In this document: one piece after another, positions 1 to 4,537 of the stretch | Numbering within the stretch: the first letter of the stretch is position 1 | How the letters are laid out: every line of letters starts with the position of its first letter | Position numbers and translations under genes: made by a program | Notes under the pieces: generated by a model | The model's database searches: none | What the model was told of the DNA's origin: nothing | What the model saw: only the letters and a program-made list of their open reading frames with translations | Virus record (IMG/VR): IMGVR_UViG_3300028129_000010 | Coordinates: 1-64,000 of that record | Reading direction: 5' to 3' (one strand) | DNA from: a virus | Lineage: Duplodnaviria > Caudoviricetes | Length of the DNA stretch: 64,000 bases

Positions 1-579
1 ATTGGTTACATTCCAACCGCCTTTTCTTTTTGGTTTTCTTTCTAACCTTCTTTCAATTATTAAATCATCTTCACCTTCAATGTTTATCATACCTCTAACC
101 ACTAAATCCTTCTCTTCATTGAATTGATTAAATACTTCTTCGTTCTTATCGGTCTTGGTTGTCTTACCAAAGAAAAGAAATTTAATTGCATCAACCGTAA
201 GTGTTGTGTTATGCGATACTATACCATTAGAATAATACTGATGAACTTTATCAACTTGGATATCATATAATGTATCTTTATCATTTAATAACTCAACACT
301 CTTAACTTTAGAAACACCATTAATTGTTTGTACTGGTTCACCAATTTCAATATCTTTAAGAACAATAAACTCACCATCCTCATTTTTTAATCTATGATAG
401 TCAGCACCCTCAACATATTTACCATCTTCAAGTTCACACCTATACACATCAGCATTCTCTTCTGTAATACCGCACCATGTAATATCATGATACCCATAAG
501 GTGTGTCAACTTGAAAACCTAAATCCCCATATTTTTCGTAAATTTCATTTAATTTACCAATTTCAATCTCTTTCTCCAT
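1..579 (-). CDS. C-terminal half of fractured gp46/SbcC/Rad50-like ATPase: IntC (124 aa) fused to C-extein; runs off window end
   Basis: Not in ORF track (no stop inside window). Hand translation from ATG at 579: MEKEIEIGKL...LYDIQVDKVHQYYSNGIVSHN|TTLTVDAIKFLFFGKTTKTDKNEEVFNQFNEEKDLVVRG...IIERRLERK. The part after HN is the SbcC/gp46 sequence that follows Walker A. Confidence 0.92.
   Translation of the reverse strand, partial: MEKEIEIGKLNEIYEKYGDLGFQVDTPYGYHDITWCGITEENADVYRCELEDGKYVEGADYHRLKNEDGEFIVLKDIEIGEPVQTINGVSKVKSVELLNDKDTLYDIQVDKVHQYYSNGIVSHNTTLTVDAIKFLFFGKTTKTDKNEEVFNQFNEEKDLVVRGMINIEGEDDLIIERRLERKPKRKGGWNVTN
208..579 (-). other. Split-intein C fragment (IntC, 124 aa)
   Basis: Block B-like GADYH (AxxH), block F LYDIQVD..HQYYSNG, block G VSHN followed by Thr +1 nucleophile. 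Confidence 0.9.
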
Positions 580-583
580 ATAA

Positions 584-616
584 CAAATATATTATTTTTT
601 ACCTAAAAATTCCAAA
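584..616 (-). promoter_or_regulatory. Bacteroidota-type sigma70 promoter for the IntC half-gene
   Basis: TTTG (616-613), 21-nt spacer, TATATTTG (591-584); ATG follows after 4 nt. Confidence 0.65.
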
Positions 617-1602
617 CATTTATTTAAAATGTTAATTTTATCTTTTTTATATTCTGAGTCCCAAATAGTTAACACTTCAAAACCATTTTCATTGGCTAAT
701 GTTATCTTATTTTTGTCTTTAACCCAAATTTCTTTAGCTGTGAGTTCTTTTCTAAAAGGGTTAGGTCTGTCTTCAGCTAAATATTTTTTAGGGTTACCAT
801 GATAATCATCACCATTATATTCAATAATTTTATTAGTATTTAAATCAGTAAAGTCGAACCTAAAAAATGATTTATTGTTGTATAATGTGTATTCACCATT
901 ATGTAATGCAAAATTTATTTTACGATTCTCCAATGGTGTGTATTCTTTTAAGATTTTAAAAAATAATTCTTGGGATATTTTAGAATATCCAGATTTAAGA
1001 TTACCATTTCTATATAATGATTTTTGCCATTTATTTTGTCTTTCGGTGAAAATCCTTAAACCTTCTTCTTCACCATGTTCCTTAATACATATTTCTTTTG
1101 AAAATGTTTGTTGTCTCTCGCTACGTTTAATTTTAGCTTCTTCTAAAGTATAACCCTTATTCATCCAGTATTCTAAACCAGCACTACCTTTCTTACCAAC
1201 TGCACTTCTCTTCCCCTCTCTTTCATCCCAAACTTTAGTGCCCTCTTCTTCACCAAATCTAGCTATACATCCTCTCAATGATACTAATTTTTGACCTTCA
1301 ATTTGAAGTATTGCTTCTTCCTTAGAATAACCTAACTTAACCCAATATTCAATATTAACTGGTCTTAGAGTTTTAATATGTTCTTCTATTAACTCCTCTC
1401 CCATACCTCTTTCTAACCAATATTCCTTAGAGTAGGCTGAACCTTTAGCCAAATTTACACCCACTTTCTTTAACCTACTAATTATAACGCTAGGGTCAAC
1501 ATTGAAGACCCTAGCTATATTGTTGGTTGATTCAAAATCATTAGTATACATCTTTACCATTTTATTAATTTCTTCTTCACTAAATTTATAAACTTTACCC
1601 AT
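592..1602 (-). mobile_element. Free-standing homing endonuclease, Vsr-like/PD-(D/E)XK (EDxHD-type) nuclease domain
   Basis: C-terminal FDF...KIIEYNGDDYH...KITLANENGFEVLTIWDSEY; N-terminal HTH-like segment and repeats EYWxxxGyxxEEA (x3) and CIxxxGEEEGxxxx (x2); sits between the two intein halves. Confidence 0.8.
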
Positions 1603-1642
1603 GATTAATTATATTTACAATTTATTATCAATAATAAATATA

Positions 1643-1661
1643 ACCTTTTAACCAAAAAGGT
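1643..1661 (-). terminator. Weak hairpin followed by U-rich run, between N-half stop and endonuclease gene
   Basis: ACCTTTT-TGGTT-AAAAGGT then TATATTTATTATT. Confidence 0.35.
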
Positions 1662-1676
1662 AAACTATTAGTAAGA

Positions 1677-2273
1677 TTATTTTAATTCATCTGGTAAAAA
1701 CCCTAATTTTTTAACTATTTCATCAACATTATACTTAACTTTAATCTTAGTGTCATACCTAACGCACTTACCACCTTGATTACTTGGCTCTGAATTAACC
1801 ACTGTAAACCCATTATAATTCTCAACAGGGAAATAGTTGTTAGGACCAAAAGATAAAAAGTTATTAACTAATAACCAAGATAATTTATATTTCTTATGTA
1901 ACTTCTCTTCTAAATCAATTGTTAATTCACCATTAACCTTATCATCTAAAGCTATGATTCTATTAAAATCTACATTCTTACCTTCTCTATCTAACCATTC
2001 TTTAAATAAACCTCTTTGGTAAGGTACGCTCATGATGTTGTTTATGTTAGCACCATCAATCTCTACAGCCTCACCCTTACTATTTGTTCTTACTGGTCTA
2101 TAAACCACATTAACATTTTGTGGTGGAATACCATATTTCTTAGAAAAATACTTCTTAACTCTAGACCTTGATTCTCTTGAGTAATTCTCAGGTTTATCAT
2201 CCCAATAAACTTTAATCTTAGCATATGGTGGTACCTTAACCACATCATTTAATATCATTTCTTTTTGTTCCAT
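1677..2273 (-). CDS. N-terminal half of fractured gp46/SbcC/Rad50 (N-extein + IntN)
   Basis: LSWLLVNNFLSFG (SbcC/SMC first strand motif) and Walker A NSEPSNQGGK, broken before the T by CVRYDTKIKV..., then stop. Confidence 0.92.
   Translation of the reverse strand: MEQKEMILNDVVKVPPYAKIKVYWDDKPENYSRESRSRVKKYFSKKYGIPPQNVNVVYRPVRTNSKGEAVEIDGANINNIMSVPYQRGLFKEWLDREGKNVDFNRIIALDDKVNGELTIDLEEKLHKKYKLSWLLVNNFLSFGPNNYFPVENYNGFTVVNSEPSNQGGKCVRYDTKIKVKYNVDEIVKKLGFLPDELK
1680..1766 (-). other. Split-intein N fragment (IntN, 29 aa)
   Basis: CVRYDTKIKVKYNVDEIVKKLGFLPDELK: Cys1 and a block A-like pattern directly after the Walker A Lys. Confidence 0.85.
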
Positions 2274-3409
2274 ATATCACTTGTGTTTGAGCCGAATAAT
2301 CCTTTTTTATTATCACCGTAGATGTCGTCATCCTCATCTTCTTTGTTTGTTGTATTATCTTGAGATTCTAACTCATCTATCTTATCATTTAATTCTTTAA
2401 TTGTTTTACCTCTCTCTTTAGATTCATCTTTGAATAACTTCAAATTATCTTTTAATTCAGTAATCTCTTCCTTTAAATCATTTATTTCTTCAGTCTTACT
2501 TTTCAAAGATTTTTTATGTTTCTTTTCATTATTATATAGAGAATTAATCTCTTCTTCTTTGAACTTTAATTCTGATTCTAAATTTTTAATTTTATTATCT
2601 TTTGTTGTATCATTAACATTATTTGATAATTCTTCCTCTAGTTCTTTAATCCTATCATCTTTAGTGGTGTTATTCTTTAAATGTGAAATATTCTTATTTA
2701 AATCGGTTATTTTCCGATTAAGTGTTTTAATTTCAACATTCTTTTCATCTTCTAATTCAGACAACATATCTTTGTACAAGATTACTTCATCTTCCAAGTC
2801 TTTAATCTTAGTTTCATTAGAATCACTATCAGCATTCATAGACTCTATGATTTCTTGATGATTTTCTTTTGTGGATTCTAACTCCTTTTGTAGGTTATTA
2901 ATTGTTTCATCGTCTGTCACATAAATTTCTTTCTCAACAATCTTTTCAACCTCCTTGATAGTTTCAATAGGTACTTCCTTTTCTACCACAATCTCTTTGA
3001 TGATTTCCACAGGAACTTCCTTTTCTACCACAATCTCCTTAATTACTTCGATTGGAACTTCCTTTTCAATAATCTTTTCAACTGGAACTTCTTTAATCAC
3101 TTCCTTCTCAATAATTTTTTCTACTGGAACTTCGATTTTCTTGATAACTTCGATTGGTACTTCTACCCTCTTCTCTACTATCCTTTCAACTTCCTTAATA
3201 ACTTCAACAGGAACCTCTTTAATGACTTCCTTTTCTACTATCTTTTCAACTTCTTTAATCTGTGCTGGTTTTTCCCATGGTACCGAACCAAACTTTTCAG
3301 ATGTAAATCCTCTAGTAACCATACTAGTTATAAACTCATCAACATTTGTTATGTTGTTAGCTTTACAGTATTCCCAGATTTCATTTTTTATTTCTTTAGG
3401 TAGTTCCAT
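2255..3409 (-). CDS. Hypothetical protein with E/K/V/I/P repeats (EVIKEVPVEK) and long coiled coil
   Basis: ORF 384 aa; residues ~50-165 are degenerate VEKEVPIEVIKE repeats; heptad-rich C-terminal half. Confidence 0.75.
   Translation of the reverse strand: MELPKEIKNEIWEYCKANNITNVDEFITSMVTRGFTSEKFGSVPWEKPAQIKEVEKIVEKEVIKEVPVEVIKEVERIVEKRVEVPIEVIKKIEVPVEKIIEKEVIKEVPVEKIIEKEVPIEVIKEIVVEKEVPVEIIKEIVVEKEVPIETIKEVEKIVEKEIYVTDDETINNLQKELESTKENHQEIIESMNADSDSNETKIKDLEDEVILYKDMLSELEDEKNVEIKTLNRKITDLNKNISHLKNNTTKDDRIKELEEELSNNVNDTTKDNKIKNLESELKFKEEEINSLYNNEKKHKKSLKSKTEEINDLKEEITELKDNLKLFKDESKERGKTIKELNDKIDELESQDNTTNKEDEDDDIYGDNKKGLFGSNTSDIWNKKK
2940..3250 (-). repeat. Degenerate coding tandem repeats (alveolin/articulin-like VPV units)
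   Basis: Repeated ggaacttc/acttccttttc units on + strand. Confidence 0.75.
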
Positions 3410-4239
3410 TATCCGTTTGTTAATTTCTCTTCACCTAACTCTAATTGTTCTAGTGAATTAATCTTAAATTGATAGAACCCATAATCAGTTTCGATATCAT
3501 GTTCTGTAAATGACTTAGATTCAATATCCCAAAATAAGAATCCATGTTTACCTACAGATTCTCCAAAGTTCTGTTGAACAAGTGAGCTAGGCATTGCTAT
3601 CGGTGTGCCTTTGTAGTCTAAAATTTGACGCTTATGTATATCTCCACACATTACAATGTTGCAACCCTCAAAGTGTTCTAAGGATGTTGCTTCTGTAAAT
3701 TCATAACCAATATCTGTTGTAGCACCAATAATAGGTGCATGATATAACCCTATATAAGTCTTATCATCACCATACTCAGCCCTGGCAGATTCAATGTCTG
3801 GTCTAGAGTTTTCATCAAAAATAGAATACACGCACCAAACAATATTATCATCTAAGATACATTCAGACTTTTTATAATATCTTATATCTAAGTCTGGTAA
3901 TAATTGTACCATTGGTGTGATTGAATCCATTCTGTCTTTGTTGTTCTCTAATAAATCATGATTACCAGCAATAATAACCACTGGTGCAATCTTTTCTAAC
4001 TTCCTTAAGAACCAGGTACCTAGTATTAATAATTCATTGGATATTGTAATTTTCTGATGCACATAGTCACCAGCAATAACAATCCTAACTTCTTCTCTAT
4101 CGTACCCAGATACTAATTCTCTAATCTTTTTTAGTGTTGTCTTAAACGCTTCACCGTACTCATCATGCATTCGATAAGTTCTGATGTGTATATCAGCTAA
4201 ATGCACAACGAATCTTACTTTTTTATTACTCATAATCAT
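3409..4239 (-). CDS. gp47/SbcD/Mre11-like metallophosphoesterase nuclease
   Basis: Motifs LADIH, AGD, AGNHD, GLYH, CGDIH; next to gp46. Confidence 0.92.
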   Translation of the reverse strand: MIMSNKKVRFVVHLADIHIRTYRMHDEYGEAFKTTLKKIRELVSGYDREEVRIVIAGDYVHQKITISNELLILGTWFLRKLEKIAPVVIIAGNHDLLENNKDRMDSITPMVQLLPDLDIRYYKKSECILDDNIVWCVYSIFDENSRPDIESARAEYGDDKTYIGLYHAPIIGATTDIGYEFTEATSLEHFEGCNIVMCGDIHKRQILDYKGTPIAMPSSLVQQNFGESVGKHGFLFWDIESKSFTEHDIETDYGFYQFKINSLEQLELGEEKLTNG

Positions 4240-4270
4240 ATAATTTTACACAAATATATTATTTTATAAT

Positions 4271-4537
4271 TTATAAGGTGAGTCTTAATACATCACCATC
4301 TTCTAAAGAAAGTGGTTTAAGTGTATAAGCTGATATTATCTCACCATTCTTAATTTCTATCAAGGTTTGGTTTGAAATGTGGAAACCATCTTCCCAATCA
4401 CCATGTAGTTTCCAAGAAACTGGGTTTAATACTGGCGTATTTTTGGGTAGATTAAATGGTGACCAAGCCACCCCTCTAGTATCAATTATTTTTGATAGTT
4501 TTATTTCACCTTTTACTATGTTACTATATGGTATCAT
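4271..4537 (-). CDS. Hypothetical protein
   Basis: 88-aa ORF tiling the - strand operon. Confidence 0.55.
   Translation of the reverse strand: MIPYSNIVKGEIKLSKIIDTRGVAWSPFNLPKNTPVLNPVSWKLHGDWEDGFHISNQTLIEIKNGEIISAYTLKPLSLEDGDVLRLTL

Follow-up and report, generated by a model that had tools for sequence, protein, structure and literature searches.

A phage gp46/SbcC-like gene probably fractured within its Walker A motif by an atypically split intein

Fractured phage genes, in which a gene of DNA metabolism is present in two pieces that each carry one half of an intein, with a free-standing Vsr-like homing endonuclease gene on the same strand between the halves, are described in the relevant sections of Dassa 2009 (PMC2677866), where Vsr-like endonucleases are described for half of the fractured genes. 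The host genes named in those sections are gp41, IMPDH, DnaE, NrdA, NrdJ, DNA ligase, terminase and one unknown protein, and most of the inteins are split at the canonical site. Here, we analyse a locus with the same general plan at the beginning of a 64,000-nucleotide stretch of DNA from a virus of the Caudoviricetes (IMG/VR record IMGVR_UViG_3300028129_000010, positions 1 to 64,000; the window, hereafter). Its host gene encodes a Rad50/SbcC/gp46-type ATPase, and its sequence identifies the element as a genuine class-1 intein cut at an atypical N-terminal site, in a fractured gene of the kind just described.

The combination of a short N-terminal intein half (IntN) with a long C-terminal half (IntC) has precedents outside gp46. 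It is found in GOS-TerL and AceL-TerL and in their consensus, Cat, of which the half CatC has been solved (6dsl); the host in these cases is the large terminase and not gp46. TerL atypical split inteins are inserted in the P-loop of an ATPase, and they combine Cys1 with Ser+1 in AceL-TerL and Ser1 with Cys+1 in GOS-TerL, compared with Cys1 and Thr+1 in the gp46 intein. VidaL (6vgv/6vgw) was reportedly described by Burton et al. in 2020 as a naturally split intein with a very short IntN; its IntN has 16 residues (29 in the gp46 intein), and it resides in another phage protein.

The gp46 locus (positions 1-2273) is encoded on the minus strand throughout, and its C-terminal gene leaves the window at base 1. 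An open reading frame (ORF) of 198 residues (2273..1677) reads ...NSEPSNQGGK, then CVRYDTKIKVKYNVDEIVKKLGFLPDELK, then stops: its first 169 residues (1767..2273) constitute the N-extein of a gp46/SbcC-like ATPase and end with the first half of Walker A (...NQGGK), while the last 29 (1680..1766; CVRYDT...PDELK) form an IntN that contains block A only and is followed by a TAA stop at 1677-1679. A spacer of 74 nucleotides, with a promoter-like element at 1635..1666 (TTTACC, 16 nucleotides, TATATT) whose function is a matter of prediction, leads to the free-standing endonuclease gene (592..1602; 336 residues, with an N-terminal helix-turn-helix). Twelve nucleotides past the endonuclease stop codon, the frame that opens at ATG 579 encodes an IntC of 124 residues (208..579), with block B (GADYH), block F (LYDIQVDKVH) and block G (terminal VSHN), and continues with TTLTVDAIKFLFFGK (TTLTVDAIKFLFFGKTT...) as the C-extein. 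This C-extein start (1..207; TTLTVDAIKFLFFGKTTKTD...) supplies the second half of Walker A, resuming at TTLTVDAIKF, and the gene extends past the window edge. The two intein halves differ in charge, since the IntC is strongly acidic (net charge -15, isoelectric point 4.4) and the IntN mildly basic (+2, 8.9). An initial annotation made from the letters alone had singled out the 29-residue IntN after NSEPSNQGGK and the acidic IntC in an ORF missing from the program's list, and all of these features are present as it described them.

Taken together, the evidence set out below makes it very probable that gp46 is fractured in Walker A by an atypically split class-1 mini-intein with an endonuclease in the cut, and that the halves are joined by trans-splicing. 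The intein hidden Markov model search that the initial annotation had called for matched the Pfam family Intein_splicing (PF14890) to residues 8-124 of the IntC ORF (E 2.4e-6). Among solved structures, sequence matches to the IntC comprise VidaL (6vgv, the best, E 1.6e-7), gp41-1 (E 1.4e-4) and DnaE inteins; given the Pfam and VidaL matches, the arrangement is not a product of chance. CatC gives a weaker match (E 8.7e-4) when a contiguous relative of the window intein, L015, is used as the query.

The residues on which splicing depends are strongly conserved. A Cys follows NQGGK directly in the window and in all 104 clusters of split N fragments, and in 87 related IntC sequences the block B His is present in 86, the block F Asp in 86, the penultimate His in 85 and the terminal Asn in every one; the +1 residue is Ser, Thr or Cys in 87 of 87. 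As the initial annotation had pointed out, block B of the window intein has Ala at the usual Thr position and the +1 residue is Thr. The same block B position is occupied by Ser in 45, by Ala in 38 and by Thr in only three of the 87 relatives, from which it follows that Ala is a family trait. Two further IntC cysteines, Cys36 (WCG) and Cys48 (RCE), are non-catalytic and invariant across 14 close relatives; of the 87 sequences of the wider family, 32 have Cys at position 36, and at position 48 Cys does not rank among the three commonest residues.

A fold model was made on the contiguous intein of L022, which is 80% identical to the window IntC and 52% identical to the window IntN. The input was a 14-row alignment that omitted the split 29-residue IntN pieces, as MAFFT set those onto the first IntC helix. 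The model (mean predicted local distance difference test score, pLDDT, 95.2) has a Hint fold, and its best 50 Foldseek matches are all inteins or Hint domains, headed by VidaL (template modelling score 0.83, E 7.5e-11) and followed by the NrdJ-1, RecA, DnaB and gp41-1 inteins. Together with the Pfam and VidaL matches, this bears out the proposal that the two pieces are halves of a single Hint-fold intein. VidaL is thus the closest solved structure by both sequence and fold, and, like the window intein, it has Ala in place of the block B Thr; it differs in sharing only about 26% identity over 146 columns and in its shorter IntN, the gp46 IntN being predicted to hold an additional short helix (residues 14-21 of the L022 model). 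On this model, the natural break maps to the loop between helix 14-21 on one side and strand 27-29 and helix 30-40 on the other. CatC residue 15 aligns with residue 47 of the contiguous relative, so that the first residue of CatC lies at most about five residues from the split site; the break is therefore located in the known 'atypical' split region.

Cultured phages give their closest matches (345 records, 26-33% identity, E about 1e-8) in Ackermannviridae and others, where a contiguous mini-intein interrupts the Walker A of TerL. In the terminase of Serratia phage IME250 (KY073123), the junction ...SGK|CVRGDS...LSHN|TT... has the same context as that of the gp46 intein, but this Ackermannviridae intein is contiguous, resides in terminase and comes without an endonuclease gene.

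The identity of the host and the insertion site can be read from uninterrupted relatives. Ten IMG/VR loci (L001-L010) carry an intact gp46, and the sequences of nine were inspected (L006 matched as L004 did). All nine have T or S as the +1 residue behind NQGGK, seven of them reading NQGGKTT; the closest intein-free relative, L001, reads ...NQGGKTTLTVDAIKF... across the proposed junction. Since these alleles read straight through, excision of 29 + 124 residues and joining of the flanks reproduces a natural protein, and the joined exteins yield NQGGKTT, a completed Walker A, just as had been claimed. The L001 gp46 protein has 789 residues and is 85% identical to the window N-extein and 91% identical to the C-extein.

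Pfam recognises neither the window N fragment nor full-length intein-free gp46, and the host identity is taken from PHROGs. L001 matches phrog_77 (SbcC-like) at E 3.9e-47, in agreement with the gp46/Rad50 assignment of the initial annotation; the short C-extein piece within the window gives E 9e-4 only. The complete C fragments of relatives have 745-747 residues, and their phrog_77 match always resumes at profile position 334. All ten IntC-bearing representatives sampled are SbcC-like, and a CxxC zinc-hook motif is found in the full-length relatives L015 and L022, in a region before which the window stops. The phrog_77 matches, the constant resume point at 334, the CxxC motif and a gp47/SbcD-like gene upstream identify the host as a Rad50/SbcC/gp46-type ATPase and place the insertion between the K and the T of Walker A. 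In this phage group, about 130 extra residues precede the usual Rad50 start at the N terminus of gp46 (N-extein residues 1-130; YWDDKPENYS...); this extension has no Pfam family match, and the PHROG 77 alignment begins at L001 residue 80.

A survey of relatives, also suggested at the outset, found alleles without the intein (L001-L010) as well as contiguous ones (L015/16 and L022/23). The 21 IMG/VR loci with the intein comprise 11 with the endonuclease between the halves, three with a short gap, three with another ORF of 139 residues and four contiguous ones. The short gaps measure 27, 45 or 96 nucleotides from stop to start. The four contiguous loci represent two distinct sequences, of 151 residues (L015/16) and 147 residues (L022/23), which are 80-81% identical to the window IntC. 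In every split allele, the IntN frame closes with ...(D/E)ELK and the next frame opens with a Met, at the same positions in 14 distinct loci. Homologues of the N fragment were collected from 5.8 billion proteins clustered at 90% identity; among the 120 clusters listed, 104 end with the IntN, which is 29 residues long in 100 of the 104 and ends in PDELK in 90. When the IntC was used as the query, a related IntC opened the sequence of 86 of the 150 best representatives at 50% identity. All of these fragments are at present annotated as hypothetical proteins. These counts, and the recurrence of the stop and start positions both in loci with the endonuclease and in those with a short gap, indicate that the split is real and old.

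This recurrent geometry bears on the possibility that the endonuclease region is removed as a group I intron, or passed over by ribosome bypass or readthrough, resulting in a contiguous precursor and cis splicing. Vsr-like endonucleases do occur within group I introns according to the relevant part of Dassa 2009 (PMC2677866), large phages may contain many small group I introns (PMC12880540), and contiguous alleles of the gp46 intein exist. However, an Rfam search of positions 1-2600 on both strands returned no group I intron or other family at E values up to 1; alleles with gaps of 27, 45 and 96 nucleotides, too short for a group I intron, end the IntN at the same ...ELK and restart at the same Met; and the hairpin potential of the element upstream of the endonuclease is not kept between loci, the element resembling a promoter instead. 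Removal at the RNA level or during translation is accordingly regarded as extremely improbable.

Some alleles carry a further small ORF of 71-170 residues directly before the IntC and ending at the IntC start (L014:5582-6001, L019:5490-6002, L024:5496-5999 and L029:5787-6002). These ORFs have a common C-terminal motif, NKNTRL...TPF...GTV...F, and are found with or without the endonuclease; they may represent a second passenger of the element.

If the halves are spliced in trans, expression would proceed from two polypeptides, an N-extein-IntN of 198 residues and an IntC-C-extein of about 745 residues in relatives. The N fragment is probably made from the gp47 operon, because it overlaps the preceding ORF, and the C fragment is probably translated from the same transcript as the endonuclease gene, which ends 12 nucleotides before it. 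The mildly basic IntN and the strongly acidic IntC would associate into one Hint domain; following the standard class-1 pathway, Cys1 would form a thioester, Thr+1 would attack it and the terminal Asn124 would cyclise. The exteins would thereby be joined as ...NQGGK-TTLTVDAIKF..., completing the P-loop of an active gp46 of about 790 residues.

Several observations weigh against this interpretation. The customary block B Thr is replaced by Ala, a Cys or Ser would be a stronger +1 nucleophile than Thr, and a Shine-Dalgarno sequence is not obvious ahead of ATG 579. The existence of contiguous alleles means that the split is not obligatory for this intein. The Hint-fold model comes from a contiguous relative only and not from the window's own IntN and IntC, and the window edge cuts the C fragment, so that the Walker B and signature motifs are visible only in relatives. 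The altered block B would suit a scenario in which the halves splice no longer and gp46 is either a decaying pseudogene or a pair of fragments held together non-covalently like phage Aeh1 NrdA; a case in which a mobile endonuclease fractured a gene and the products assemble non-covalently is documented (PMC3045599). It is important to point out, however, that intein halves and exteins alike are under purifying selection: the pairwise ratio of nonsynonymous to synonymous divergence (dN/dS) is about 0.19 for the IntC and about 0.18 for the IntN, with dS near 1, and both intein halves are, by this measure, maintained. Splicing residues are conserved in more than 80 diverged relatives and the layout is retained in more than 100 alleles, while a domain of 153 residues between the K and the T of Walker A would be expected, judging from the structure of P-loops, to block nucleotide binding. 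A loss of splicing is thus considered very unlikely, and trans-splicing of the halves the preferred reading.

The initial annotation had cited fractured phage genes whose split inteins flank a free-standing endonuclease, and the 29- and 124-residue halves and the Vsr-like fold predicted for ORF 1602..592, which lies between them, agree with that arrangement. The 336-residue protein matches phrog_22677, of unknown function, at E 6e-24. Neither a profile search against PDB chains (nothing significant) nor Foldseek with the whole model (no match at E 0.001 or better) revealed a relative, and the Vsr-like domain was resolved by VIA-align alone. The C-terminal domain of the model is confident, and residues of about 200-336 align with Vsr (1cw0; Z 10.8, 117 aligned, root-mean-square deviation 3.8) and with the catalytic domain of I-Bth0305I (3r3p; Z 10.2, 94 of 97 aligned, root-mean-square deviation 2.8); residues 1-49 match the GcrA DNA-binding domain, a helix-turn-helix, with Z 8.7. 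The modelled catalytic domain thus shares its fold with I-Bth0305I and Vsr and appears to present acidic and His residues in the same order, but sequence identity is only 14-19%, and the gp46-locus gene is free-standing between intein halves instead of intron-encoded. Orthologues with 62-66% identity occupy the same position in 11 loci, with invariant acidic and His residues at D250/D253, E261, D265, H268 and D315, which we infer to correspond to the catalytic residues of Vsr. When the window was searched over its full 64 kb with profiles of the intein and of the endonuclease, no second copy of either was detected.

The promoter-like element ahead of this gene is a 30-nucleotide sequence (TTTACC, 16 nucleotides, TATATT) that is near-invariant in all ten endonuclease-bearing loci and is kept in L026, which has no endonuclease; a consensus scan puts its hexamers at 1664..1637. 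The pattern suggests that the element is probably a promoter travelling with the endonuclease. A candidate hairpin, ACCTTTT..AAAAGGT, was also considered as a conserved stem upstream of the endonuclease and was rejected because the pairing is not kept in other loci.

The distribution of the element across related phages points to mobility. IntC identity is 69-84% across loci whose N-exteins share only 41-62%, and the exteins nearest to those of the window (72-85% identity) are intein-free. An intein that is far better conserved than its exteins, in a gp46 gene whose nearest relatives have none, implies that the element is or was mobile, and the pattern of identities would fit horizontal spread by homing or, alternatively, repeated precise loss. 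The endonuclease is probably the agent by which the element moves, or formerly moved, from one gp46 allele to another. In a tree of IntC sequences, L026, which lacks the endonuclease, and L029, which has it, are sisters (support 100/99), and the contiguous alleles fall within a supported clade (95/93) of otherwise split alleles; the tree is rooted with an outgroup on a very long branch and does not settle whether split or contiguous forms came first.

Split alleles with gaps of 27-96 nucleotides suggest that the split outlasts the endonuclease in many lineages and might be more than a relic of its invasion. This persistence, together with the retention of the promoter-like element before the C fragment in L026, the one locus without the endonuclease that was aligned, raises the possibility that trans-splicing has been co-opted to control the timing or the amount of active gp46 ATPase assembly. 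The contiguous alleles that nest among split ones in the IntC tree may, in addition, be natural re-fusions. We regard this scenario as unlikely.

How new this system is depends on what is compared. The words gp46, Rad50 and SbcC are absent from Dassa 2009 (PMC2677866), and Novikova 2015 likewise names none of them as an intein host; in the literature searched, with InBase and subscription journals outside the search, no paper names gp46, Rad50 or SbcC as hosting an intein, split or otherwise. The suggestion in the initial annotation of a new gp46/SbcC allele is upheld to the extent that no paper was found naming this host, but the allele is not rare, as at least 104 clusters share the split N fragment and 86 of 150 representatives carry the IntC. 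The arrangement is known (Dassa 2009), the break falls where the inteins of the TerL/VidaL/Cat group are split, and the mechanism is not surprising; the system is nevertheless real, widespread and useful. The family supplies a large and diverse natural set, with Cys1 combined with Thr, Ser or Cys at +1, more than 100 alleles with a 29-residue IntN and 86 diverged representatives that begin with the IntC. Moreover, all stages are found at one insertion site in related contigs (intein-free, contiguous, split with the endonuclease and split without it), so that the steps by which an endonuclease splits an intein, and the possibility of reversal, become directly testable. The element also resides in a gene of the nuclease complex which a review of phage T4 lists among those possibly acting in the double-strand-break repair that homing requires (PMC2988022).

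Two further genes lie upstream of the gp46 locus. A gp47/Mre11/SbcD-like phosphoesterase, the partner nuclease, is encoded at 3409..4239 on the minus strand (Pfam Metallophos, E 4.2e-10; phrog_100, SbcD-like, E 1.4e-14). In L011 (1888-3546), the gp47/SbcD-like ORF is short (226 residues) and is followed by a Cys-rich ORF of 305 residues (MYKKCEKCGNEY...) before the next conserved gene; this layout may mean that a different endonuclease has split the gene of the partner nuclease too, as Dassa 2009 (PMC2677866) describes for one SbcD-like gene. Between gp47 and gp46 in the window lies a Glu/Lys/Val-rich ORF of 384 residues (2255..3409, minus strand), which shares 19 nucleotides with the beginning of the N-fragment ORF and contains 42-nucleotide tandem repeats, encoding 14-residue units of the EKEVIKEVPVE type, and a coiled-coil tail. 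Its orthologue at the same place in L001 has only 266 residues, indicating that the repeat number is variable.

A megablast search of cultured phages with window positions 1-4300 returned no match. Further along the minus strand (4787-38718), the window also codes for an exonuclease (phrog_298), a baseplate wedge protein, the large subunit of ribonucleotide reductase and a DnaB-like helicase, and six large window ORFs of 400-914 residues are without a PHROG match. The contigs of relatives measure 350-380 kb, which indicates that the phage is probably a jumbo myovirus.

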